A DNA stretch of 64,000 nucleotides from Candidatus Moraniibacteriota bacterium (lineage in GTDB: Bacteria; Patescibacteriota; Minisyncoccia; Moranbacterales; UBA1568): NCBI GenBank assembly GCA_963743885.1, contig CAVURJ010000001.1, forward strand, positions 140,949 to 204,948, given 5' to 3'. The first letter of the stretch is position 1. Each line of letters starts with the position of its first letter. Positions 6,843-55,551 of the stretch are shown here, one piece after another. Under the pieces are notes generated by a model. That model made no database searches and was not told the DNA's origin. It saw only the letters and a list, made by a program, of their open reading frames with translations. The translations under genes and the position numbers were made by a program.

Positions 6843-7331
6843 CTATTTTTTTATCAGTTCCATTTTTCGGCGGCTGGCGTGGCAGACGGCGAGTGCGAGA
6901 GCGTCGGCAGCATCGTCCGGCTTCGGGATGCTCGTGAGCTTCAGGATATTCTTGACCATGAGCTGTACTTGGGCCTTGTCGGCGCGGCCGTAATTGGTGA
7001 GTGCTTGTTTGACTTCTAATGGAGTGTAACCAGCTATTCTAACACCAAAACGCTCCAAAGTCAAGAGTATGACGCCGCGGGATTGAGCCACGGAGATGAC
7101 GGTTTTCTGGTTGTTATAGAAGAAGAGCTCCTCAACTGCTGCTTCTTCTGGCGAAAATTGCTTAATAAGGGCCTCGATATCGTTGGCTATTTCAGCCAGG
7201 CGCTTCTCGGCGGGAAGGTCTTTGGAGGTGGAAATATGCCCGAAACTGACGGAAGAGACTTTCCCCCCGTCTGATTCGATGACGCCCCAGCCGACCGTCG
7301 CCGTGCCGGGATCGATACCAAGAATCCTCAT
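6843..7331 (-). CDS. ruvC: Holliday junction resolvase RuvC
   Basis: MRILGIDPGTATVGWGVIE N-terminus, 162 aa. Confidence 0.9.
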   Translation of the reverse strand: MRILGIDPGTATVGWGVIESDGGKVSSVSFGHISTSKDLPAEKRLAEIANDIEALIKQFSPEEAAVEELFFYNNQKTVISVAQSRGVILLTLERFGVRIAGYTPLEVKQALTNYGRADKAQVQLMVKNILKLTSIPKPDDAADALALAVCHASRRKMELIKK

Positions 7332-9160: not shown

Positions 9161-10174
9161 CTAGACCAGCTTGTCCTGGTGGTTCTCGGGGACATCGAGG
9201 CCGAGGTGCTGGTAGGCTTCCGGTGTGACGACGCGGCCGCGCGGGGTGCGGGCGAGGAAGCCGAGCTGGATGAGGTACGGCTCGTAGACGTCCTCGATCG
9301 TCTGGATCTCTTCACCGGCGACAGCGGCAATCGCCTGGATGCCAGCCGGTCCTCCGCGGAATTTCTTCATGATGCTTTCAAGGATATGCCTATCAGTCGG
9401 TTCGAGGCCGAGGCGGTCGATCTCATAGAGCGCGAGCGCTTCGCGAGCCGTCTCTTCATTGATGATGGCGATGTCCTTGATCTCCGCGTAGTCGCGGACG
9501 CGTTTGAGGATTCTATTGGCGACGCGCGGTGTCTGGCGGCTAGAATGAGCGATCGCGCTCGCTCCGGATGGGTCGATGCCGATGCCCAGGATGCGGGCGG
9601 AACGAGTGACGATCCTCTCGATTTCTTCTGGCGTGTAGAATTCGAGCCGGTGAGTGGAGCCGAAGCGGTTGCGGAGCGGGTTGGAGAGCGATCCGAGTCG
9701 GGTTGTGGCGCCGATTAGAGTGAAATGGGGCAGATCGAGCTGGATAGTGCGCGCGGCCGGGCCCTTTCCGATGATGATATCGAGCTTGTAGTCCTCCATG
9801 GCTGGGTAGAGGACCTCCTCAATCTGCTTGTTGAGGCGGTGGATCTCATCGATGAAGAGGACGTCACCGTCGTCGAGATTGGTGAGGATGGACCCGAGGT
9901 CTCCGACACGCTCGATGGCGGGGCCTGAGGTGACCTTGATGCTCACGCCCATCTCTTTAGCGATGATATTAGCGAGCGTGGTCTTACCGAGGCCAGCCGG
10001 CCCGTAGAGGAGGACATGATCAATGCTTTCCTCGCGCTTCTTGGCGGCGCGAATCACGATATCGAGGTTGCGCTTGATCTTTTCTTGGCCGACATAGTCG
10101 GTGAAGCACTGTGGCCGGAGCGTGATATCGAGCGTCTGCTCATCGAGTGGCGCTCCTTCGGCTGAATTTATCAT
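9161..10174 (-). CDS. ruvB: Holliday junction branch migration helicase RuvB
   Basis: [17 protein letters not shown] Walker A, RuvB-type AAA+ fold, 337 aa. Confidence 0.92.
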
Positions 10175-10403
10175 ACTAGTGGCTTGAATAAGGGAAGAAA
10201 TACTATGGCAGTCATCTTATTTTACCACCTCTTGACCCCGGTTACAAATTCAGAGAAAGATGTTTGTAATCGGGTATTTGAAGGCGAAGCCGTCTATCGG
10301 CTCAGCTGGGAGAATGTCTGGATTTCGGCCTAATTTGTAACGGGGTTGACAAAAAAACAAAGCCATGCTATCATCCAAAGTCGCTTTACAAAGAATTTAT
10401 GTT

Positions 10404-10446
10404 CCCGGCCCGCCCGCAACGCTTCGCGTAGCGATGCGGGCGGGGC
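10404..10446. repeat. GC-rich palindromic element copy A (CCCGCCCG-loop-GCGGGCGGG family)
   Basis: cccgcccgcaacgcttcgcgtagcgatgcgggcggg; homologous copies at 15398, 18216, 33190, 35541, 52163. Confidence 0.7.
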
Positions 10447-10636
10447 TGTCTCACATGTAGACAATTGGGGATTACTATCTTTTGTCCTCAATCATGGGGA
10501 TGGGCGGGCCTTCGGGTTCCCTAGTCAAGATCGGGTAGGGTGGTTCCGGCTGCGCTACACCTCGACACCATTCCTTTTCTCGGGCTCCTATGTCTGGGAT
10601 TTGTCTACAGCTGAGACAGTGACATAAGCGAACAAA

Positions 10637-10672
10637 AAGAGGCCCATCCGCCAGCCGGCGGAGGGCCTCTTT
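10637..10672. terminator. Bidirectional rho-independent terminator
   Basis: agaggccc-[ccgccagccggcgg]-gggcctct hairpin flanked by A/T runs; 3' of gspE-like gene. Confidence 0.6.
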
Positions 10673-10695
10673 TGCTTTGCCTGTGGAATGATTGG

Positions 10696-13600
10696 TCAGA
10701 GATTCGCGACGCGACGGACTTCGTCGAGTGACGTTTTGCCTTCGATGACCGAGAGTATGCCGTCCTGTGCGATGGTGATCATGCCGTTCTCGATGGCCTT
10801 CTCTTCAATCTCATGAGTGAGCGCTCCGCGGGCGATGAGGTCTTTGATGGTATTGTCGATAGGGATGGTTTCCGAAAGGACGAGCTGCCCCGCATGACCG
10901 GTTCCATTGCAATTCTGGCAACCGGCACCACTCCAGATTTTTAGTGCGTCCTTTGGTAGGGTATCAACGTGTTCCGGCGAGAGCGCAGAGAGGACTTTTG
11001 AGATGATGGCGTGTTCCTCATCGGTCGGTTTTCTCGGTTGTTTGCACTTCTCGCAGAGCCTACGGACGAGGCGCTGTGCGATGAGGAGACCACCGGCATT
11101 AGCGATATCATCACCGGAGATGCCCATTTTCATGAGGCGCGATATGGCTCCGGCAGCAGAATTGGCATGGAGTGTTGAGAGTACGAGGTGGCCGGTATTG
11201 GCGGCTTGTATAGCGATGCGCGCTGTATCATCGTCGCGGATTTCGCCTACCATGAGAACATCTGGGTTCTGACGGAGCAAGGCACTGAGAGCGGTTGAGA
11301 AAGTGTATCCTTCAGCTTCGTTTATCTGGGTCTGTAGAATGCCAGGCATCTGGTATTCGATCGGATCTTCGACGGTGATGATTTTCGTCTCTGGTTTATT
11401 AAGGAGTGCAAGCGTTCCGTAGAGCGTCGTTGTCTTTCCGGATCCTGTCGGTCCGGTATTGAGAATGATGCCGTTTGGAGCATGAATTGCGGAAAGAATC
11501 CTTTTCAAGTTTTGCGATCGGAGAGCGAGGTTTTCAAGGTTGAGCGCGGCATTTGATTGGTTCAGAAGGCGTATAACTGCGGTTTCGCCAAAACCTCCGA
11601 GTATGAGAGAAAGTCGAACATTGATTATTTTGTCCGGCGCGCCATCGGGTTGTTCAATAGCAATAGAGAAACGTTTATCGGTAATTCCGGCGCGCTCGCT
11701 TGTCTTGAGGCCCACTAGGTTCTTGATGTCATTGATAAAGCTCGGATATTCGTTGAGCGGGAAGCGTGCGATCGTTTGAAGCATGCCGTCTATGCGGAGC
11801 CTAATGGAAAAATCTTTGTCGGAGGGTTCGATATGGATGTCGCCAGCATGCATATGTATTGCCGCAGCGAAAACGATCTGTAATCTCGTTTTGGATTCTG
11901 AGTGCAAAACGTATTCCTCGAATACCTGGAAAGAAGAGAGGTGTCGCGCTGTTTCGGTGACGATATCGGATGGAATGAACGATGAGCGCGAAAGGTCGCT
12001 CGACATCAAATCGAGGTAGATATTTTTCAGCATATCAGATTGGTCGGTGACGCGGGAAATCTCCTCAAGTGTTGTGATTCCATCGAGCATCTTTAAGATG
12101 CCATCCTGAGTCATGGTGACCATGCCGTTTTCGAGAGCTGCACGAAAGAGCTCCTGTTCAGTTCCGAGATTTTCGATAATCTTGATGATATCCGGCGTCA
12201 TGGCGAAGACCTCAAAAATTCCGATGCGGCCTTTGTATCCCGTAAAATGACAATTTGGGCATCCAGATGCTTTCCAGAGAACCCGCACCTCTTTCGGAAG
12301 CACGATTTTTGCTTTGGGGGATATGATAGTGATGAGGCGGATGATGGAGTCGATAGTTCCTTTCGCTGGTTCGTATGATTGTTTGCATTGGTCGCAGAGT
12401 TTGCGGACGAGCCGTTGCGCGATAAGGACGTTGACTGAGGCAGCAAGGACCGAGGGCTTCACTCCGAGTTCGATAAATCTTGGGATGGCGCCAGGGGCAC
12501 TGTTGGCGTGGAGCGTCGACATGACGAGGTGGCCGGTGAGTGCGGCGTTGACAGCAATATCAGCCGTTTCGTCGTCTCGAATCTCGCCGATAAGAATGAT
12601 GTCCGGGTCTTGACGGACGATAGCTCGGAGCGCCGAAGCGAAAGTATAGGATTTGTCTTTTGAGACTTCAGTCTGTACGATGCCAGGAAGCGAATATTCG
12701 ATCGGATCTTCGACGGTGATGATCTTAGCCCCTGGCTGGTTGATGATATTGAGGAGAGTGTAGAGCGTCGTTGTCTTTCCGGATCCTGTCGGCCCGGTAT
12801 TGAGCACCATGCCGTTCGGCTTTTCAATCTGGCGGAGCACTTCCTCGCGGGCGAGCCCTCGCAGCCCGAGCGAGTCGATATCGACGATGACATCTTCGCC
12901 TGATAGAAGGCGCATATTTATGCTTTCCCCGTATTTTCCAGGGATGATGTTGACGCGGACATCGATGCGTTTTTGGTCGAGCGTGATGAAAAAGTGACCG
13001 TCTTGGGCTTTATCGCGGATATTGAGCCGCATTTTTCCGATCATTTTGATGCGGGAGATGAGTTGCCGGTAGACCGCCTGAGAAAGCGACCCGATATTTT
13101 GGAGTACGCCATCGACGCGATAACGGAGGCGTACAGTATCTTCTTCTGGCTCGAGGTGGATATCGCTTGCGTCGAGCTTTCTGGCGCCAGCAAGAACGAC
13201 CTCGATGGAATGCGAAGTGGTTGATGGCCGATTTTCTTTCAGGCTGATGAGTTCACCGAAATCCTTTTCGAATTGCTCAAGGTCATTGCCTTTGAGCGAG
13301 ACGCGGACGAGGTCAAGGCTATCGCTGACCGATTGTTTTGTATAAGCTTCCCAGGCGCTTTCAATGGATGGTTTTGAGACGACGTAGAGCTCTCGGCCGA
13401 ATCCTTTTTTCTCTACGAACGTATCGATATAGGAAAGCGCTTCTTGGTTTGCTGGGTCGGTAATCGCAAAGAGTGCCTGTAAGCCTTTCTTTTGGAAAAG
13501 GATAAAGCCGAGGCGTCGAGCGTCCGCCTCCGGGATAAGCAGGGCCTCTTCCGGTTCGACAGGAAAAAGACTGAGGTCTATATATGGGAGGCCGCATGAG

Positions 13601-13719
13601 GCGGCGAAACGAGCGGTAGTTTCCTCAATGGAGACCTCCTTCATCTTCTGTAGGAGCTCCTCTGTCTTCCCTGTTTTTTCATCAGGAAGCTGGCTGCTCT
13701 GATGGGTGACTTTCACCAT
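10696..13719 (-). CDS. Tandem-duplicated GspE/PilB-family secretion ATPase (two complete ATPase cores in one 1007-aa polypeptide)
   Basis: Two Walker A boxes (LNTGPTGSGKTTTLYTL and ILNTGPTGSGKTTTLYGTL), two tetracysteine motifs (CDQCKQ...GCPNCHFTG; CEKCKQ...GCQNCNGTG), N-terminal GSPII_E_N-like domain. Confidence 0.8.
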   Translation of the reverse strand: MVKVTHQSSQLPDEKTGKTEELLQKMKEVSIEETTARFAASCGLPYIDLSLFPVEPEEALLIPEADARRLGFILFQKKGLQALFAITDPANQEALSYIDTFVEKKGFGRELYVVSKPSIESAWEAYTKQSVSDSLDLVRVSLKGNDLEQFEKDFGELISLKENRPSTTSHSIEVVLAGARKLDASDIHLEPEEDTVRLRYRVDGVLQNIGSLSQAVYRQLISRIKMIGKMRLNIRDKAQDGHFFITLDQKRIDVRVNIIPGKYGESINMRLLSGEDVIVDIDSLGLRGLAREEVLRQIEKPNGMVLNTGPTGSGKTTTLYTLLNIINQPGAKIITVEDPIEYSLPGIVQTEVSKDKSYTFASALRAIVRQDPDIILIGEIRDDETADIAVNAALTGHLVMSTLHANSAPGAIPRFIELGVKPSVLAASVNVLIAQRLVRKLCDQCKQSYEPAKGTIDSIIRLITIISPKAKIVLPKEVRVLWKASGCPNCHFTGYKGRIGIFEVFAMTPDIIKIIENLGTEQELFRAALENGMVTMTQDGILKMLDGITTLEEISRVTDQSDMLKNIYLDLMSSDLSRSSFIPSDIVTETARHLSSFQVFEEYVLHSESKTRLQIVFAAAIHMHAGDIHIEPSDKDFSIRLRIDGMLQTIARFPLNEYPSFINDIKNLVGLKTSERAGITDKRFSIAIEQPDGAPDKIINVRLSLILGGFGETAVIRLLNQSNAALNLENLALRSQNLKRILSAIHAPNGIILNTGPTGSGKTTTLYGTLALLNKPETKIITVEDPIEYQMPGILQTQINEAEGYTFSTALSALLRQNPDVLMVGEIRDDDTARIAIQAANTGHLVLSTLHANSAAGAISRLMKMGISGDDIANAGGLLIAQRLVRRLCEKCKQPRKPTDEEHAIISKVLSALSPEHVDTLPKDALKIWSGAGCQNCNGTGHAGQLVLSETIPIDNTIKDLIARGALTHEIEEKAIENGMITIAQDGILSVIEGKTSLDEVRRVANL

Positions 13720-13847: not shown

Positions 13848-14984
13848 TCAGGCTTTCGGCTGGAGGGCGGCGATGACGATCTGCTCGGCCTCGTCGAGAC
13901 TCTGTGCGGTCTTGGTGAATCGGAAGATATCGCCTTGGATTTCGCCGTCGCCAATCTCGAGCGCAGCCTGGGAGAGGCCTTCTGGCGAAGCACTTTTGAT
14001 GATGCCAGTGATCGACCCAGGCGTTTCCGGAAAGAGAATCATGTAGTGGCTCGCGATGGAATAGTTACCGCGGATCTTTTCGAGGATGACGGGGAGGTCT
14101 TCGACACGGGCGCGTGACTGGACCAGGTCTTCGATGGATACGAGGGCCCAGATAAGCCTCAGTTGCTCATTCCAGCGGACGCCGGCCATGACGCGGCCCC
14201 AGAGCTTCAGGAGGTTGAGCGGCTGGGTCTTGTAGAGCGACCGGATAATCTTCTGCTGGTCGATACCGTGGTCCATGAGGCGTGAGGCGGTCTGGAGCGC
14301 CTTCGGTGTCGTGTTTTTCTTCTGGAAGCTTTCGGTCGCGGAGATGATGCCTGAGAGCAGGCTTTCGCCGACCTTTGTGTCGATGCGGTCCGGGAATGAT
14401 TGTTCGAGGATCTCCGCGAGGATCTCCGCGCTCGACGATGCGGTGATATCGACGAGGTTGATCTGGCCGAAGAGCTCGTTCTCTGGGTGGTTGTCGATGG
14501 TGATGACTGGCATCTCGTAGAAGATGTCCGGGTTGTTTTCGTAGACTCTGCCGAGGTGCTCCTTGTCCGGGCTGCCGATGACGATGGCGAGGTCAAATTT
14601 GAACTGCGCCGGGATAAACGAAAAGTCGCGCGGGTCGATGGAGCCGTGTTCGGGTGTGAGGTAGATGCGGAGCTCATCTCCGACCGTTTCTGACCGTACG
14701 TTGCTGATCTTGTTGTGCTCGGTATTGAAGGAGAGGACGAAGTCGCGAGCGCCGGTGATATCCGGAAGCAGCCGAGATGGCTCGCCGATGAAGGCGAGGA
14801 GCTCCTTGTCTTTCACGATGTTGTCGCCGGCAATATGAGGCTCCTGGCCGAGGCTTTCGAGCGCAAATGCAAGCGCAAATGCAGTAGCGACAGCATCGCG
14901 GCTCGGGTAGGCTGGTAGCAAAATGAGCGGCGTGCGGGATTTTTTGAGGAGTTCCTGGAATTGCTGGGCAGGAGAGAGGGACAT
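13848..14984 (-). CDS. DHH/DHHA1 family protein (NrnA-like; catalytic motifs appear partly substituted)
   Basis: 378 aa; GSPDKEHLG and ITIDNH (DNH instead of DHH) motifs. Confidence 0.5.
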   Translation of the reverse strand: MSLSPAQQFQELLKKSRTPLILLPAYPSRDAVATAFALAFALESLGQEPHIAGDNIVKDKELLAFIGEPSRLLPDITGARDFVLSFNTEHNKISNVRSETVGDELRIYLTPEHGSIDPRDFSFIPAQFKFDLAIVIGSPDKEHLGRVYENNPDIFYEMPVITIDNHPENELFGQINLVDITASSSAEILAEILEQSFPDRIDTKVGESLLSGIISATESFQKKNTTPKALQTASRLMDHGIDQQKIIRSLYKTQPLNLLKLWGRVMAGVRWNEQLRLIWALVSIEDLVQSRARVEDLPVILEKIRGNYSIASHYMILFPETPGSITGIIKSASPEGLSQAALEIGDGEIQGDIFRFTKTAQSLDEAEQIVIAALQPKA

Positions 14985-24883: not shown

Positions 24884-25453
24884 ATGATAGGAAGATTGGA
24901 AGGAAAAATCGCCGGAATCCGCGGAAATGCCGCTATCGTCATGGTTGGAGGCGTGGGCTATCTCGTGGCTGCGTCTGCCTATACGCTCGGCAAGATCGCC
25001 GGAGAGAGCGAAGTGTCACTCCATATCCATACGCATGTACGAGAGGACCAGCTGGCGCTTTATGGCTTCTTGTCCGAGGAGGAGCTTTCTATGTTTGAGC
25101 TTCTCATCTCTATCTCCGGCATTGGGCCGAAGGTCGCGCTTTCTATTCTCTCTATCGCTGATCCCAAGACTATCCGCACTGCAATCGTGAACAAGGATCC
25201 GTCCATCCTGACGCGCGTGTCGGGGGTCGGCAAGAAGACGGCCGAGCGCGTCATCGTGGAGCTTCAGAACAAGGTGGATGCGATCGGCATCGAAGACCAG
25301 GGGACAGCACTGGCTGGCCAGGACGCTATCGAAGCGCTGGTCTCGCTCGGCTACTCTGTCACAGAGTCCCGCGAAGCGCTCAAGCAGGTGCCGGCCGATA
25401 TCACGGATGTCAGCACGCGTATCCGCCAGGCTTTGAAAAATCTGGGGAAGTAG
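24884..25453 (+). CDS. ruvA: Holliday junction DNA helicase RuvA
   Basis: MIGRLEGKIAGIRGNAAIVMVGGVGYLV ... HhH motifs GIGPKVAL / GVGKKTAERV. Confidence 0.9.
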   Translation: MIGRLEGKIAGIRGNAAIVMVGGVGYLVAASAYTLGKIAGESEVSLHIHTHVREDQLALYGFLSEEELSMFELLISISGIGPKVALSILSIADPKTIRTAIVNKDPSILTRVSGVGKKTAERVIVELQNKVDAIGIEDQGTALAGQDAIEALVSLGYSVTESREALKQVPADITDVSTRIRQALKNLGK

Positions 25454-31306: not shown

Positions 31307-33035
31307 TTGCTGGCTATGAGCCTTCTCAATAAGGCATTAAAAGGGAGTCTTGGACTTATTGCCCTCGGCTTCCTTTTCTTTTGTGCGGAACCGGTGCGAG
31401 CCGAGGAAATCAGCCGTTTCTCTACCGATATCGTGGTAGGGAGCGATGCATCGATGGCTGTTGTTGAGACCATTGACTATGATTTTGGCGAGGAGATGCG
31501 TCATGGCATTTATCGTGATATCCCGACGGAGTACGTGACGAAGCTCGGGGCGGATCAGAGTATCGATATCAACGTAGAGGGCGTGGAAGACGCTTCTGGG
31601 AAGAGCTATACGTATGAGACGTCCTCTTCTGGTGGTGTCTTGAAGATCAAGATTGGCGATGCCGATACGCTGATCACTGGGCGGCATACGTATGTCATCC
31701 GTTACCGGGCCCGGTATGCATTCGGATATTTCGATGGCTTTGATGAGCTCTATTGGAATGCGACGGGCAATGGTTGGCAGGTGCCAATAGGTCGAGCCGA
31801 AGCGAGGCTGACGCTGCCCGAGAATGTGCCGTCGGACAAGATCCAGACGAGTTGTTATCTCGGCGCATACGGGAGCAGTGAATCCTGCGACGACGCCGCT
31901 CATTTCGATGGACGTGCCTACGTCGCTTCTGCTTCTCGGGTCCTCCAGCCGAGTGAAGGACTGACGATCGCGGTCGGTTTTCCAAAGGGGGTCATTCGTG
32001 AGGTCGGTACGCTTGAGCGGATCTGGAATTTCATCAAGGATAATCCGGTCTCGCTCCTGCCACTTCTCGTCTTCGGGTATATGTTCCGGCACTGGTATCG
32101 CTACGGGCGCGACCCGGAAGGTCGTGGGACGGTCATCCCAGAATACGATATGCCGGGAAGGACTGTCTGTTATCGAGGTGGCGGGACTGATGAAGAGCTC
32201 TGTCTCGGCTGAGCAGGTCTCGGCGGGTATCGTCGACCTTGCCGTGCGCGGCTATTTGAAGATTGCGAAGACTGAGAAAAAGGTCCTCGTTTTCTCAAGC
32301 GATGAGTATGTCTTTACCCGGACGGAGAAGCCAGCTGAGGATGCTATCGATCGAGCATTCCTTGAGGCACTTTTCGGCGAAGCGGACGGTTTTGGCAAGG
32401 CGGTCGAGCTCTCGTCGCTCAAGCAGAAGTTCTACAAGTCCATCCCGGAGATAGAGAAGCTCGCTATGGGGCGGCTCGTCGAGAAGGGATACTTCCCGAA
32501 GAACCCGAAGGATGTCATCGGTAAATACATCTTGTTCGGGGTCTTAGGTATCTTTGCGGCTGTTTTCGTTTTTCCGGGTGGTCCGGTGGCGGTCATCTCG
32601 GTCATTATCTCGTTCGTCGCCTATTTCGTTTTTGCTGCGCTCATGGGTACCGTGACGAAGGACGGGGCGATCGTGAAGGAGCACATCTTGGGTCTCAAGG
32701 ATTATCTTTCCATTGCGGAGAAGAATCGTATCGAGTTTCACAACGCTCCTGAGAAGCGGCCGGAGCTCTTTGAGAAGCTCCTGCCGGCTGCGATGATCCT
32801 CGGTGTGGAGAAGCTTTGGGCTAGGGAATTCGAGGATATGTATATGGCGGAGCCACAGTGGTATAGCGGTGCGCATGGGGCGGCGTTTTCGGCATCAGCG
32901 TTCGCATCGGATCTCGGCGGCTTCCAGACGGCAGCATCGCAGACGCTCGCTTCTGCTCCGGGCGGATCGAGCGGCTCTGGTGGCGGTGGATTCTCCGGCG
33001 GAGGTGGCGGCGGAGGTGGCGGTGGGAGCTGGTAA
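31307..33035 (+). pseudogene. DUF2207 (TPM-associated) membrane protein split by a frameshift near 32153-32157
   Basis: ORFs 31307-32212 and 31998-33035 are N and C halves (EYDMP | EGLSVIEVAGL...DLAVRGYLKI; Gly-rich tail); deleting one G in ccggg restores the frame. Confidence 0.55.
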
Positions 33036-49159: not shown

Positions 49160-49229
49160 CCTATTTCACCTAGGCGGTGATTTTAACGGTTATTTGGGCG
49201 CCCGGACGTCTTTTTTGCATAATTCCAGC

Positions 49230-50942
49230 ATGTATATCAGGGATATGGAGGATGTCCTCGGACATGATGAACTCAAGGCGCTCCTGCTTGATGCAGGGCT
49301 CGTAGAGGAGAAGGACCTCGAGATGGCCGAGGAGCATTTCCGCACGAGCGGTGGGACGTTCGCGCAGGCTATTCTTTGGTATAGTCTCGTCTCGGATGAA
49401 GAGCTCGGCCGCCTTATGGCGGATGCGCTTGGTGTGCCGTTCGCCGATCTTTCGCAGAAGTCGATATCGGACGAGGTGCTTCGTATTGTTCCTGAGGCGA
49501 TCGCGAAGCATCGCCATGTGATCGCCTTTTCCGTCGATAGTGATGGTCTTCATGTGGCCATGGCTGATCCTCGCGACCTTGAGATGCGAGGGTTCCTCGA
49601 GAAGAAATCAGGGATGCCTGTCATCGTCTCGTACGCATCCGAACGCGGATTGGAGAATGCGCTTTCGCTCTATCAAAAGGGAGTGACCCAGGCGTTCGAT
49701 GATCTCATCGCTTCCGATCTCGAGGCGGCCGGCAAAGCTGGCAAGGAGACTGATCCTCCGATCATCCGCATCGTCGATACGCTCATCGCCTATGCGTACC
49801 AGAATCGTGCATCCGATATCCATCTCGAGCCGCGCGAGCGCGATATGCTGGTGCGTTTCCGCATCGACGGCATGCTCGTCGATATTGTGAAGCTGCCGCC
49901 GGAGCTCCATCCACAGATCCTTTCGCGCATCAAGGTGCTCGGTGGGTTGCGCACCGATGAGCATAAGGTGCCGCAGGACGGCAAGGTAGAATTTCCGATT
50001 GAAGGCCGCGAGCATCTCGATGTCCGCGTCTCCATCATCCCGACGACCGAAGGGGAAAAGGCAGTGCTCCGGTTGCTGTCCGACCGATCGCGTCAGTTCT
50101 CGCTCGCCAATCTTGGTTTTTCCCAGGATACGCTCGAGATACTCAAGACGGCCTACCGCAAGCCGTATGGCATGGTGCTGGTCACTGGTCCGACCGGCTG
50201 CGGCAAGACGACGACGCTGTATTCCGTGCTCAAGCTACTCAACCGCCGCGATGTGAATATCGTGACGATCGAGGATCCGGTGGAGTACGACATGGAAGGC
50301 GTGAGCCAGATCCAGGTCAACCCGGAGGTGAATCTTACGTTCGCTACGGGTCTCCGGAGTATCCTGCGCCAGGACCCGAATATTATTCTGGTCGGCGAGA
50401 TCCGCGACAAGGAGACTGCCGGCATCGCCGTGAATCTCGCGATGACGGGCCATCTCGTCCTCTCGACGCTCCATACGAACGACGCCGCGACGTCCATCCC
50501 GCGCCTGATCGATATGGGCATCGAGCCGTTCCTTATCGCATCGACCGTCAATATCATCATCGCACAGCGACTTGTGCGCAAGATTCATGAGCCGTGCCGC
50601 GTGAGCGAGGAGGCTGACAGTGAGGAGATCCGGAAGCGGATCGGTGACGAATCGTTCAGGGCGATCTTCGGCTCGGATTGCCAGAGCAAGACGGTGCGCG
50701 TCTATCGTGGTAAGGGTTGTGACGCCTGTCATGGTACTGGTTATGAGGGTCGCTCCGGCATCTTTGAGGCGCTCGTACTCGATGATGCTTTGCGTGAAGC
50801 GGTAGCGGATTCCAAGGATGCTGGCATTATCCGCGACCTCGCGGTGCGCGCCGGGATGCTGACGATGTTCGAAGATGGCTTGCTCAAGGCATTCCAGGGT
50901 CTGACGACGCTCGATGAAGTCATGCGCGCCACTAAAGAGTAA
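49230..50942 (+). CDS. pilB: Type IV pilus assembly ATPase PilB (GspE family)
   Basis: GSPII_E_N-like N-terminus, LVTGPTGCGKTTTLYSVL Walker A, CRVSEE...GCDACHGTG tetracysteine; start could be 49194. Confidence 0.85.
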   Translation: MYIRDMEDVLGHDELKALLLDAGLVEEKDLEMAEEHFRTSGGTFAQAILWYSLVSDEELGRLMADALGVPFADLSQKSISDEVLRIVPEAIAKHRHVIAFSVDSDGLHVAMADPRDLEMRGFLEKKSGMPVIVSYASERGLENALSLYQKGVTQAFDDLIASDLEAAGKAGKETDPPIIRIVDTLIAYAYQNRASDIHLEPRERDMLVRFRIDGMLVDIVKLPPELHPQILSRIKVLGGLRTDEHKVPQDGKVEFPIEGREHLDVRVSIIPTTEGEKAVLRLLSDRSRQFSLANLGFSQDTLEILKTAYRKPYGMVLVTGPTGCGKTTTLYSVLKLLNRRDVNIVTIEDPVEYDMEGVSQIQVNPEVNLTFATGLRSILRQDPNIILVGEIRDKETAGIAVNLAMTGHLVLSTLHTNDAATSIPRLIDMGIEPFLIASTVNIIIAQRLVRKIHEPCRVSEEADSEEIRKRIGDESFRAIFGSDCQSKTVRVYRGKGCDACHGTGYEGRSGIFEALVLDDALREAVADSKDAGIIRDLAVRAGMLTMFEDGLLKAFQGLTTLDEVMRATKE

Positions 50943-51066
50943 TTTCCAATGATCAATTCGCAATTTACATTGAATTTCCAATGAGACAATGATCAATTTT
51001 TGAAAATCACAACATTGGAATTTGAAAATTGATTGAAAATTGGAAATTGAAAATTTCTTAAAATAT
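50943..51066. repeat. AT-rich direct-repeat region (ttccaatga / caatttt / tgaaaat units) between pilB and pilC
   Basis: tttccaatgatcaattcgcaatttacattgaatttccaatgagacaatgatcaatttttgaaaatc...gaaaattgattgaaaattggaaattgaaaatttc. Confidence 0.55.
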
Positions 51067-52119
51067 ATGTTCTCTTCCGTATCTCATATCGACAAGCTGC
51101 TCTTCACCCGCGAGCTCTCGGTCATGCTCCGAAGCGGCGTGCCGATCGGCGAGGCGCTCGCGTCATTTTCTTCGCAGGCGAAGCGCGGACCGATGAAGCG
51201 ACTCGTCCTCTCGCTCCTCTCTGACATCGAGAACGGACAGCTTTTTTCAGCTGCGCTCACCAAATTTCCGAAGGCGTTCGATGCGCTTTATATCAACCTC
51301 GTGCGTATCGGCGAGACATCCGGGACATTACCAGAAAATCTCGCTTTCCTCTCGCGCGAGATGGATAGCTCGTACGCATTTCGGAGGAAGATCCAGGGCA
51401 TCATTCTGTATCCGGCGCTCGTCCTTTCGATGGCGCTCGTCCTTGGTGCTGCTATCAGCATCTTCATCCTGCCGAGGCTCATTCGGCTCTTTGATTCGTT
51501 CGATATTGTGCTGCCGCTCTCGACGCGCATCCTGCTTTCCATCGCATCCGTCATGGATCGGTACGGCATCATCGTTTTCGCGCTGCTTTTTGCTGCCATC
51601 ATGCTTTGGCGCATCATCATCGCACTGCCGGCCGTGAAGCCATTCTGGCATCGGCTGCTCCTGTCACTCCCTGTATTCGGTAGTTTTTCCCGCGATGTCG
51701 CGCTCGCGCATTTCTGTCGCGATATGGGGGTGATGCTCCGGAGCGGCTTGCCGCTTTTCGAAGCGCTTACTACCGAGTCGGCAGCCATGGAGAATAGGGC
51801 GTTCGCCCGTCTCGCTCAGTCGCTTGCACTCGCTGTCTCACAGGGGCGTTCGCTCGCTCTAGAGCTTGTGCGTCCTCAGTATGCTGTCATTCCGCCAATC
51901 GTCGTCCGGATGATCACGGCCGGTGAGAAGACGGGGCGTCTCGCAGAGACATTTGCCTATCTCGAGGAATTTTATGAGGCAGAGACTGATCGCCGCATCA
52001 AGGGGATGACAGTGATCTTCGAGCCGCTGCTCCTGGTTGTCATTGGTCTCATCGTCGCGTTCCTCGCCACGGCTATCATGACGCCTATCTATTCCCTTAC
52101 AGGCTCCATCCACCGGTAG
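51040..52119 (+). CDS. pilC: Type IV pilus inner-membrane platform protein PilC (GspF family), N-terminally short
   Basis: Two T2SSF repeats; alternative start 51067 (MFSSVSHIDKLLF). Confidence 0.75.
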   Translation: MEIENFLKYMFSSVSHIDKLLFTRELSVMLRSGVPIGEALASFSSQAKRGPMKRLVLSLLSDIENGQLFSAALTKFPKAFDALYINLVRIGETSGTLPENLAFLSREMDSSYAFRRKIQGIILYPALVLSMALVLGAAISIFILPRLIRLFDSFDIVLPLSTRILLSIASVMDRYGIIVFALLFAAIMLWRIIIALPAVKPFWHRLLLSLPVFGSFSRDVALAHFCRDMGVMLRSGLPLFEALTTESAAMENRAFARLAQSLALAVSQGRSLALELVRPQYAVIPPIVVRMITAGEKTGRLAETFAYLEEFYEAETDRRIKGMTVIFEPLLLVVIGLIVAFLATAIMTPIYSLTGSIHR

Positions 52120-52229: not shown

Positions 52230-52658
52230 ATGAAAGGATTTACACTTATTGAAGTCATACTTGTCGTCGGGCTCGCCATAGCGATCGCGGCGGTTGCTCT
52301 GCCATCGCCGGCGCGTTTTGTCTTTTCGCAGCAGGCAGCAGTCGTCGCGGATGAGCTTTCGGGGAGCCTACGTAAGGCCCAAGGCTATGCCATGTCTGGC
52401 AAGGGCGGGGCGTCATGGGGAGTCGCTGTCCGGGATGGTTACATCGTGCTGTTTCAGGGCGGCTCGTACGATAGCCGGGATGTGTCCTTTGATGAAACGT
52501 ATACTATACCCGATCGGATCAATGTTTCCGGTATTGATGAAGTGATTTTTGTGGGGCCATCCAGCCATCCGTCGGCGACACCAGAGGTAACGATAACTTG
52601 GAGGGATGACAGCTGGTCATATGTGCTGAATGCCGAAGGCGTCTTGGAGGAACGTTGA
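52230..52658 (+). CDS. Type IV pilin-like (pseudopilin) protein
   Basis: MKG/FTLIEVILVVGLAIAIAAVAL class III signal peptide. Confidence 0.75.
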   Translation: MKGFTLIEVILVVGLAIAIAAVALPSPARFVFSQQAAVVADELSGSLRKAQGYAMSGKGGASWGVAVRDGYIVLFQGGSYDSRDVSFDETYTIPDRINVSGIDEVIFVGPSSHPSATPEVTITWRDDSWSYVLNAEGVLEER

Positions 52659-52662
52659 ACTT

Positions 52663-53124
52663 ATGCGGACCGTACAAAAAGGATTTTCGCTGATTGAGCT
52701 GCTCCTGGCGGGAGCGATTTTTTCCGTGTCCGCCTGGGGGATGGCGGAGGTGCTTATGTCGGCGCTCACGACTGATCGGCTGAGTGAGGAGACAGCGATT
52801 GCGTCTTTGTACGCCGAAGAGGGGATTGAGGCGGTCCGGTCGATCCGGGCAGGGAGCTTCGATGCGCTCGTTGAGACGGGGTCTTCGGGAGTCGCCGTTT
52901 CGGGTGATCATTGGGAATTCGCTGGCTCTGAAGATACGTATGGGAAATACAGGCGCGTCATTGGGGTCGCCGAAGTGCGCCGCGATGCCAGTGGGAATAT
53001 TGTGGAGAGCGGTGGCGATGCGGATCCTGATACTCGCAAGGTGACAGCGACGGTCACATGGAATGTCACGTCATCCAGAGAGGATTCGGTGGTGTTGGAA
53101 ACATATCTCACACGCTGGAAGTAA
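52663..53124 (+). CDS. Type IV pilin-like (minor pilin) protein
   Basis: MRTVQKG/FSLIELLLAGAIFSV. Confidence 0.7.
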   Translation: MRTVQKGFSLIELLLAGAIFSVSAWGMAEVLMSALTTDRLSEETAIASLYAEEGIEAVRSIRAGSFDALVETGSSGVAVSGDHWEFAGSEDTYGKYRRVIGVAEVRRDASGNIVESGGDADPDTRKVTATVTWNVTSSREDSVVLETYLTRWK

Positions 53125-54205: not shown

Positions 54206-55051
54206 ATGCTGTTCCCCAAGAAACGATACACACTATTCATCGGGAAGGATCGCATCGATCCTGGACTCGTCGTACTTCGTGACGAGCCTGTTTTTTATGC
54301 TGATGAAGCGTTCGCGTATACCGAAGAAACGTTCGCCTCGGTGCTTGCGGATGTCGGCCGGCTGGCGAAGGGCAGGAAGGCCCGCATCGTCCTCTCCGAG
54401 AGCCTGGTCTATGTGACGACGCTCCGGTTGCCGGCAGGGACAGCTCTCACTCGCGAACGTATCAGACAGGAGGCTGAAACATCGATACCGGAGGATTTGC
54501 AGGTGACAGACTGGGATTTCCAGGCGATCCGTTATGCATCCAAGCCGGGAGCGGATGGCGATGTGACGGTCCAGATAGCGGTTGTCCAGTCCGCATTCTC
54601 GCGGATGCTTCGGGAGGCATTGCCTGGAAGCGGCCTTTCCGTCGAGAGTATCGTGCCGGAATCATACGCACTCGCTCTCCTCGAGCCATCTCTCGCAGAG
54701 CTCTCAGTCATCATCGCGCAAAACGGTCCGGCGACGCTTCTGGCTGCTGTTCATGATGGATTTGTCGTCGCTTCCGAAACGAAGCGTGCTCTCATACCTG
54801 GAGATATCGAAGTATTTATCGCATTCGCTGAGCGGAAATCCGGTTTGTCTGTCGCGCGTCTTATGTGTTCTGGTGCCGATCTGCCGCTTCCGACCGCGTA
54901 TGCTCGCGAAAGCCGTGATCTGAATCCGCTCATCGGGGCGGCATCCGAGGAAAAAGTCTCAGGTGATGACGAAGCCGTGCTCAACCTCGCTTCAGCGGGA
55001 TCATTCCGCCGTACAGCACTCGGTTTCATCTCTTGGAATTCACGCCCCTAG
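54206..55051 (+). CDS. Hypothetical protein in pilus cluster (possible divergent PilM-like)
   Basis: 281-aa ORF between minor pilins and major pilin; no clear motif. Confidence 0.35.
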   Translation: MLFPKKRYTLFIGKDRIDPGLVVLRDEPVFYADEAFAYTEETFASVLADVGRLAKGRKARIVLSESLVYVTTLRLPAGTALTRERIRQEAETSIPEDLQVTDWDFQAIRYASKPGADGDVTVQIAVVQSAFSRMLREALPGSGLSVESIVPESYALALLEPSLAELSVIIAQNGPATLLAAVHDGFVVASETKRALIPGDIEVFIAFAERKSGLSVARLMCSGADLPLPTAYARESRDLNPLIGAASEEKVSGDDEAVLNLASAGSFRRTALGFISWNSRP

Positions 55052-55086
55052 CTGGTATCATGGACTCATGTAACCGATCGGACTAT

Positions 55087-55551
55087 ATGCAGCAGAAACA
55101 GAAAGGCTTTACTCTCATCGAGATCCTCCTCGTTATTGGCATCATCGCGGTTTTGGCGACGGTTGTTATCGTCGCACTCGATCCGGCTAAACGTTTTGCA
55201 GATGCTCGTGATGCGCGGAGACTGTCCGATATCCAGAGTATTCTTAATGCCACCCAGCAGTACATTATCGATAACAAGGGAGTGCTGCCATCGGGGCTTG
55301 ATACGACAGAGCGGCAGCTCGGTACGGCGAGTTCTGGCTGCAGCATCAGTGGTAACTGCGGTGTTTCTGGTGATGGGGATTGCCTCGATCTTTCGGGAGG
55401 ACTCGCCAAGTATTTGAAAGAGATGCCGTATGATCCACAGAATGGATCTTCTAGCACTACGCATTACTCCATCGTCGCTGATAGCAATGGTATCGTGACT
55501 GTGACCGCATGCGATTCTGTTGATACGACCATCGCATCGGTTTCCCGCTGA
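55087..55551 (+). CDS. pilA: Type IVa major pilin (PilA-like)
   Basis: MQQKQKG/FTLIEILLVIGIIAVLATVVIVAL; C-terminal Cys pair. Confidence 0.8.
   Translation: MQQKQKGFTLIEILLVIGIIAVLATVVIVALDPAKRFADARDARRLSDIQSILNATQQYIIDNKGVLPSGLDTTERQLGTASSGCSISGNCGVSGDGDCLDLSGGLAKYLKEMPYDPQNGSSSTTHYSIVADSNGIVTVTACDSVDTTIASVSR

Follow-up and report, generated by a model that had tools for sequence, protein, structure and literature searches.

A single gene at 10696..13719 on the minus strand of a 64,000-nucleotide stretch of Candidatus Moraniibacteriota bacterium (GenBank assembly GCA_963743885.1, contig CAVURJ010000001.1, positions 140,949 to 204,948; hereafter the window) encodes a 1007-residue type IV filament ATPase with two intact PilB/GspE motor cores and one N1 docking domain in each chain. 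We are virtually certain of this architecture, which characterizes a length-conserved family of Patescibacteria wherever the organisms have been named. By every sequence criterion, this tandem-core protein is a member of the PilB/GspE clade (Pfam T2SSE), but it breaks the rule of one core per chain. An earlier sequence-only reading of the same DNA had proposed one polypeptide with two complete GspE/PilB cores, two Walker A boxes, two tetracysteine motifs and one GSPII N-domain, and both the Pfam matches and the motif positions bear this out.

The open reading frame (ORF) has an ATG start, 1007 codons and zero internal stops, with a single terminal stop in its translation, and its product is 100% identical to a database protein (P0001) located on a 652,564-bp contig. 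Pfam T2SSE matched two stretches of the protein (E 1.7e-219, 728 bits; best stretch 172-556), while one MshEN domain (PF05157) was recognized at residues 43-130 (E 6.1e-9, 36.2 bits vs. a cut-off of 23.1), so that the paired T2SSE hits suggested beforehand as a check were indeed recovered. The N1 domain (GSPII/MshEN-type; 13330..13593, minus strand) is present as a single copy, N-terminal to module A, and module B has none. Based on Pfam, motifs and conservation, N1 is followed by core A (12046..13206, minus strand), composed of N2D-A (~172-290) and a C-terminal domain, CTD-A (~291-558); then by a linker of ~50 residues (559-611; 11887..12045, minus strand), delimited by column conservation and by an AlphaFold2 (AF2) model; and finally by core B (10699..11886, minus strand), composed of N2D-B (~612-737) and CTD-B (~738-1007). 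Modules A (172-559) and B (613-1006) share 43% identity over 394 residues (E 6e-117), a similarity far above chance.

The AF2 model of the full protein contains confident PilB-like domains, with a mean predicted local distance difference test score (pLDDT) of 84, and N1 adopts an alpha/beta fold (pLDDT 80-92). The linker starts with a conserved amphipathic stretch (consensus DQxxxLxNIYxxLMxSxLSRSS), passes through a hinge at ~572-577 (pLDDT <50) and continues as two helices leading into N2D-B (pLDDT 88-90 over 581-610). Searches with Foldseek found no solved chain covering more than ~37% of the tandem-protein model.

The tandem layout is not a peculiarity of one genome. Among the best 120 homologue clusters taken from a collection of 5.8 billion proteins, 117 have a length of 1000-1050 residues, with 97-100% query coverage (100% in all but a few) and 48-79% identity, their sources being NCBI, JGI, ENA and Logan assemblies. 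When 1.84 billion representatives clustered at 50% identity were scanned exhaustively with HMMER, ~14 full-length tandem representatives were returned (978-1018 residues, 39-55% identity), below which the scores drop to the level of single-core proteins. Furthermore, one ORF with two cores was found at 31 of the 80 best species-representative loci (one genome per species), and of 149 two-core proteins, 115 have their Walker A boxes 447-448 residues apart (range across the set, 429-451). The named lineages carrying tandems, namely Moraniibacteriota (most of them), Paceibacterota/Parcubacteria, Falkowbacteria and Minisyncoccota, are all Patescibacteria; some tandem-bearing metagenome-assembled genomes (MAGs) are labelled otherwise, e.g., "uncultured Bdellovibrionales", and such labels are unconfirmed. 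One family member, KKU82539.1, is already present in GenBank; it derives from a MAG of the Parcubacteria group and is named "General secretory pathway protein E". The survey of tandem GspE proteins in genomes of the candidate phyla radiation (CPR) that had been recommended on the basis of the sequence gave a recurrent layout, with the counts stated above for clusters and species loci.

It is scarcely credible, then, that an error of sequencing or assembly, or the loss of a stop codon, joined two adjacent pilB-like genes in this one genome. The hidden stop or frameshift that would have split the gene was not encountered, since the ORF is uninterrupted here and in the 117 full-length clusters of four independent data sources, as well as in 31 species-representative genomes, at 38-79% identity. 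Moreover, the spacing of the modules is constant, the linker is conserved in its first part, and module B has neither its own N1 domain nor its own start-codon context. Judged from this sequence record, frameshift and misassembly can be dismissed.

Both cores retain the full set of motor residues. Residue roles were taken from Geobacter metallireducens PilB (PMC5424180), onto which the tandem protein was mapped by a constant offset of 16 and not by structure superposition. The Walker A box GPTGSGKT is located at 309 and 756, and its lysines (K315 and K762) do not vary among 65 homologues. The Asp box EDPIE (337-341 and 784-788, with glutamates E337/E341 in A and E784/E788 in B), the atypical Walker B GEIRD (378-382 and 825-829, with catalytic E379 and E826) and the His box TGHxxxxxxH (395-404 and 842-851, with H397/H404 and H844/H851) are, in each of the two modules, either invariant or conserved to at least 90% across 65-117 family members. 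The same degree of conservation was observed for the tetracysteine, a putative zinc motif, formed by C442/C445/C487/C490 in A and C889/C892/C934/C937 in B. In each N2D, two invariant Arg fingers are spaced 15 residues apart (R255/R270 in A, R702/R717 in B), corresponding to R271/R286 of G. metallireducens PilB.

Residues acting between subunits were likewise kept in both modules, including the threonine that contacts the neighbouring packing unit (T395/T842), the inter-chain arginine specific to PilB/GspE (R439/R886) and the acidic pore loop (D382/E384 in A, D829/D831 in B). Altogether, nearly all catalytic, Arg-finger, inter-unit and pore residues are invariant in the 65 homologues. Mean column conservation reached 0.74 for N2D-A, 0.76 for CTD-A, 0.69 for N2D-B and 0.71 for CTD-B, the linker and N1 being lower (0.51 and 0.54, respectively). 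On these alignments neither core resembles a decayed copy, and both are under strong purifying selection.

Despite this shared equipment, module B has signature changes throughout the family, with R498 replaced by Q945, H242 by R683, R223 by D/E664 and D371 by N818. Conserved reversal of charge occurs at only three aligned positions, where R223 of N2D-A faces D/E664 in the alignment, and K354/K356 of a CTD-A loop face E801/E803. Since almost all single-core PilBs have R223 (159 of 180), its loss is specific to module B. If these positions touch across the unit formed by N2D(n) and CTD(n+1), the reversals would favour packing of A with B rather than of like modules with each other, which we regard as a lead. 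In addition, mean identity is 45% among B modules vs. 50% among A modules, denoting a faster evolution of B.

Regarding family assignment, module A alone scored 472 bits (471.7) with the PilB model, 448 with GspE and 186.8 with PilT, and module B alone 384-386 bits with the PilB and GspE models (384.3 for PilB) and 152.6 with PilT. Neither half reached the PilT/PilU cut-off (TIGR01420, 319.1 bits), and both carry the tetracysteine, a motif present in PilB/GspE and absent from PilT/PilU and FlaI (PMC5424180). By these scores and motifs, both halves are PilB/GspE-like rather than PilT-like. The whole protein exceeded the cut-off of the PilB equivalog model (TIGR02538, 675.65) with 847.7 bits, but only by summing the two cores, the halves being below it; the canonical single-core PilB of the window (49194..50942, plus strand; Pfam T2SSE and MshEN), with 524.3 bits, was also under this value. 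Neither half reached the GspE equivalog cut-off, and every other curated equivalog cut-off was likewise missed. The protein cannot be assigned specifically to type IVa pilus PilB, to GspE or to ComGA.

The origin of the two cores was approached through pairwise identities and bootstrapped neighbour-joining trees of 147-155 cores. Modules A and B are 42-43% identical to each other, whereas the core of the canonical PilB is 42.6% identical to A and 40% to B. In the trees, B modules formed a clade of their own, with at most two intruders, in 61% of bootstraps; A modules were scattered among stand-alone PilBs, and A and B together were not monophyletic. The intragenic duplication put forward by the sequence-only reading is accordingly not established, as A and B are no closer to each other than either is to the canonical PilB. 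Because of this equidistance, the topology of the trees and the occurrence of A-like single-core proteins, the event that produced two cores was old, and it may have been either a duplication after which B evolved faster or a fusion of two paralogues.

Two such A-like proteins are stand-alone single-core PilBs. P0201 (L086:908-2584) shares 62% identity with the A half of the tandem protein P0133, and P0136 (L084:354-2159) shares 50-52% with several A halves. P0136 ends in what is left of the conserved linker helix, a stop follows, and the next 286 bp contain no B module; both genes lie on short contigs, and no B module is present downstream as far as these contigs reach. They could represent secondary loss of module B or an ancestral, pre-fusion state. 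Another candidate, P0217, was considered as a split version and rejected, being a contig-edge fragment of a tandem. An origin of the A-B linker by copying of the N1-N2D linker, from which the extent of the duplicated unit would follow, was also considered and found no support (hhalign on the linkers alone, E 0.14).

A three-core orthologue of 1460 residues, P0006 (L081:8001-12383; JGI 3300022698 Ga0248662_100121), was identified on one contig only, at the same TsaE - DHH - gene locus as the two-core orthologues. Its three cores are complete, with intact motifs and a repeated linker, and are 54% (A-B), 58% (B-C) and 46% (A-C) identical. The third module of P0006 is the only one that clearly arose by internal duplication.

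As to how such chains assemble, we favour, at about even chances, a single six-core ring made by three chains, in which A and B alternate. Such a ring would turn and lift a PilC-type platform protein, polymerizing pilins as the PilB hexamer does, but its N1 domains would number only three, and its active sites would be of two chemically distinct kinds. From two chains, P0006, with three cores in each, would form the same six-core ring. Rings of six domains built in two ways have a parallel in PCNA, with three chains of two domains, vs. the beta-clamp, with two chains of three domains. The in-plane arrangement is favoured because the pore and inter-unit residues were retained in module B, because only two-core and three-core versions were seen, both numbers being divisors of six, and because the PilB family is known to adopt alternating C3 rings of OCOCOC conformation (PMC6858323). 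The acidic pore loop of module B would fit a position in which B faces the platform protein.

Several observations weigh against this alternating six-core ring. No pilus gene lies next to the tandem gene at any locus examined. In single-core PilBs, we found no clear co-variation of the 354-356 loop with R223, the loop being negative, neutral and positive in 66, 52 and 43 proteins, respectively. The full-length AF2 monomer has a predicted template modelling score (pTM) of 0.52, with no fixed arrangement of the two cores, and a fragment spanning CTD-A, linker and N2D-B has a pTM of 0.61 and the hinge with pLDDT <50, so that rigid packing of N2D-B on CTD-A is unsupported; these monomer models do not discriminate in-plane from stacked geometry. 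Moreover, the tandem ATPase domains of KaiC, p97/NSF and ClpA/B usually stack as two rings. In structures of the engineered GspE-Hcp1 fusion, a coaxial second ring can reportedly sit beneath the GspE C-termini, which are said to lie on one face and to tolerate it. The chains of PDB 4KSR and 4KSS are indeed GspE fused C-terminally to the hexameric Hcp1.

The behaviour of these other tandem ATPases and of the Hcp1 fusion speaks for a stacked double ring, in which six chains would place 12 cores in two tiers, with ring A and its N1 domains toward the membrane platform and ring B beneath. This arrangement, which we consider less likely than the single ring yet a strong competitor to it, would agree with the absence of N1 from module B, with the flexible hinge that AF2 gives in place of an in-plane packing unit, and with the head-to-tail topology of a linker that exits CTD-A and enters N2D-B. 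However, a distal ring B would be off the platform, yet its pore-loop acids and motor residues are as conserved as those of A; the three-core P0006 would need three tiers, with 18 cores and ~1 MDa; and no stacked ring is known in the PilT/VirB11 family, where every solved chain has one core. A division of labour, with A as the extension engine and B either as a retraction motor replacing PilT or as a regulatory, non-motor nucleotide sensor, seems quite unlikely to us. It would account for the separate clade and faster evolution of the B modules and for their invariant changes at R498/Q945, H242/R683, R223/D/E664 and D371/N818, and asymmetric use of tandem cores does occur, since an unrelated tandem protein (P0141, described below) has one dead core. 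The window also has no PilT-like gene, but it covers ~10% of the contig and this absence says little. Against a pseudo-enzyme, every catalytic residue is kept in B; against a PilT substitute, B scored 384-386 bits with PilB/GspE vs. 153 with PilT (cut-off 319) and keeps the tetracysteine that PilT/PilU lack (PMC5424180).

Returning to the alternating ring of three chains, a stricter version would be obligate, enforced by charge-complementary surfaces (R223 and K354/K356 vs. D/E664 and E801/E803), with three-fold chemical symmetry and two specialized kinds of site; we regard it as rather doubtful. If true, it would represent a three-fold motor in a family for which a two-fold (CCOCCO) rotary cycle is assumed, with P0006 as the two-fold version, and both would be natural, covalently constrained tests of PilB-type stepping. 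Both might also unite extension and retraction in one ring.

The tandem gene is surrounded by housekeeping genes unrelated to pili. Its upstream neighbour (13848..14984, minus strand) encodes a DHH-like protein of 378 residues, identified by a weak Pfam DHH match (E 0.003) and by synteny; the orthologue beside P0006 carries a precomputed DHH match (unmarked, E <= 1e-5). This protein reads ITIDNHPEN at the possible position of the DHH motif and may be a catalytically degenerate protein of NrnA/RecJ type. Downstream lies ruvB (9161..10174, minus strand; Pfam RuvB_N, AAA_lid_4 and RuvB_C), and beyond these two genes the locus is flanked on one side by a bPH-domain gene, yebC and ruvC, and on the other by tsaE, polA and fpg. 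This gene order was kept in 19 of 31 tandem loci, and in Moraniibacteriota the conserved neighbours are the DHH-like gene, ruvB and the bPH gene. As a conserved neighbour, the DHH-like gene is restricted to Moraniibacteriota. At divergent tandem loci (L020-L025 and L050), the neighbours are TyrRS, ArgRS, Translin, a metallophosphatase and UvrA, with no pilus genes. A conserved upstream partner was considered and rejected, since the upstream gene at these loci is unrelated to the DHH-like gene (no BLASTP match) and probably encodes a membrane protein.

Between the tandem gene and ruvB there is a gap of 521 bp (10175-10695), long vs. the 128-bp gap upstream of the tandem gene. It holds only a plus-strand ORF of 93 residues (10346-10627), doubtfully real, and no RNA gene was found in it (no Rfam match at E<=1, no tRNA). 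The Holliday-junction genes of the window (6843-7331, 9161-10174 and 24884-25453) are dispersed, with ruvC and yebC on the minus strand beside ruvB, the bPH-domain gene lying between, and ruvA 15 kb off on the plus strand. The tandem ATPase is thereby located in a stretch rich in repair and replication genes (ruvC, ruvB, polA, fpg and a holA-like gene), which may be coincidence.

The sole pilus cluster of the window, at 47-56 kb and ~35 kb from the tandem gene, is composed of a histidine kinase, the canonical pilB, pilC and pilins. A separate canonical pilB had been placed at ~49230 from the sequence alone, and it is found there, in the ORF 49194-50942 with an ATG at ~49230, followed by pilC and pilins; the core it encodes shares 40-43% identity with the two tandem modules. 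The PilC-type platform protein (51040..52119, plus strand; two stretches of Pfam T2SSF, E 7.6e-51) is, as far as the window shows, the tandem protein's only candidate platform partner, and pilins with an N_methyl motif are encoded at 52630-53124 and 55033-55551. Neither a third T2SSE-like gene nor pilT was found in the 64-kb window. The zinc motif of the canonical PilB has three of the four cysteines, with KIHEPCRV replacing the first CxxC and the second pair (CDAC) intact; both tandem cores, unlike this protein, keep all four. Elsewhere in the window, the N- and C-terminal halves of a DUF2207 membrane protein occur in two plus-strand ORFs (31307-32212 and 31998-33035) that are in different frames and overlap by 215 bp, which suggests a frameshift, from either sequencing error or a pseudogene.

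Sequences of this family are already public and annotated generically ("GspE/PulE family protein"), and the architecture itself is apparently undescribed; we found no paper on a tandem-core PilB/GspE in open-access full texts, including a 2024 review of PilB and a paper on CPR protein families. Similarly, no sequence or structure with two PilB/GspE cores was found in the PDB. PilB, GspE and PilT motors have been studied as homohexamers, and the rotary mechanism proposed for them rests on symmetry arguments drawn from structures solved by crystallography and cryo-EM (PMC5424180; PMC6858323). In a natural chain whose two or three cores are intact but slightly different, every second or third site of the ring could be mutated without protein engineering. 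The number of sites that must fire, their firing order and the working symmetry, C2 vs. C3, become testable in this way. Such a site-by-site approach is said to have proved informative with covalently linked ClpX.

Type IV pili are believed to play a central part in the episymbiotic lifestyle of Patescibacteria (PMC6744442; PMC11623550). For CPR biology, the tandem protein represents a lineage-specific and strongly conserved extra motor outside the pilus operon; the filament it drives might be either a second pilus or one for DNA uptake.

In comparison with known systems, PilB of G. metallireducens (PDB 5TSG, 5TSH and 6OLJ) is the best sequence match among solved structures (E 2.5e-102) and also matches the tandem model in fold, with a Foldseek target-normalized template modelling score of up to 0.94 (best 5tsg_B, root-mean-square deviation 1.9 A, 42% identity). 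Both proteins share the order N1 - N2D - CTD, both Walker motifs (A and B), the Asp and His boxes, the Arg fingers, the tetracysteine, the inter-chain Arg and the acidic pore loop. However, PilB carries a single core in each chain and assembles as a homohexamer of C2 (CCOCCO) symmetry, while the tandem chain adds a second N2D-CTD without N1, and its gene, unlike that of PilB, lies outside the pilus operon. GspE/EpsE of Vibrio (PDB 1P9R, 4KSR and 4PHT) belongs to the same clade, with the same motifs, including the tetracysteine, and with profile scores comparable to those of PilB, but it has a single core. A classical type II secretion system is absent from Patescibacteria, because these bacteria have no outer membrane (PMC6744442).

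Outside the CPR, two T2SSE cores with similar spacing were found in P0141 (GCA_964384625.1; L082:8001-11144 and L083:3275-6418), the only other tandem encountered, a T2SSF + T2SSE + T2SSE protein represented by one sequence cluster, but in which a PilC/GspF-like T2SSF domain replaces GSPII at the N-terminus. Its first core has a Walker A of GPTGSGTTT, with the Lys changed to Thr, and a degenerate Asp box, and its gene is directly downstream of a pair encoding an extracytoplasmic function (ECF) sigma factor and an anti-sigma factor. Its relatives are single-core T2SSF+T2SSE fusions of ~610-620 residues (e.g., P0298, P0302 and P0326, the last named Brocadiia), and P0141, independent in its origin, is an offshoot of this ~615-residue family. 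Since it derives from that family, tandem cores arose at least twice.

As a general analogy, ring-forming modules are also repeated within one chain in KaiC, p97/NSF, ClpB, PCNA and the beta-clamp, whose folds are unrelated or distantly related. Within the PilB family, PilF of Thermus thermophilus (PDB 6F8L and 5OIU) is another ATPase made long by internal repetition, with a chain of 913 residues in 6F8L. In PilF, the N-terminal GSPII domains are repeated and the motor core is single, whereas in the tandem protein it is the motor core that is repeated.

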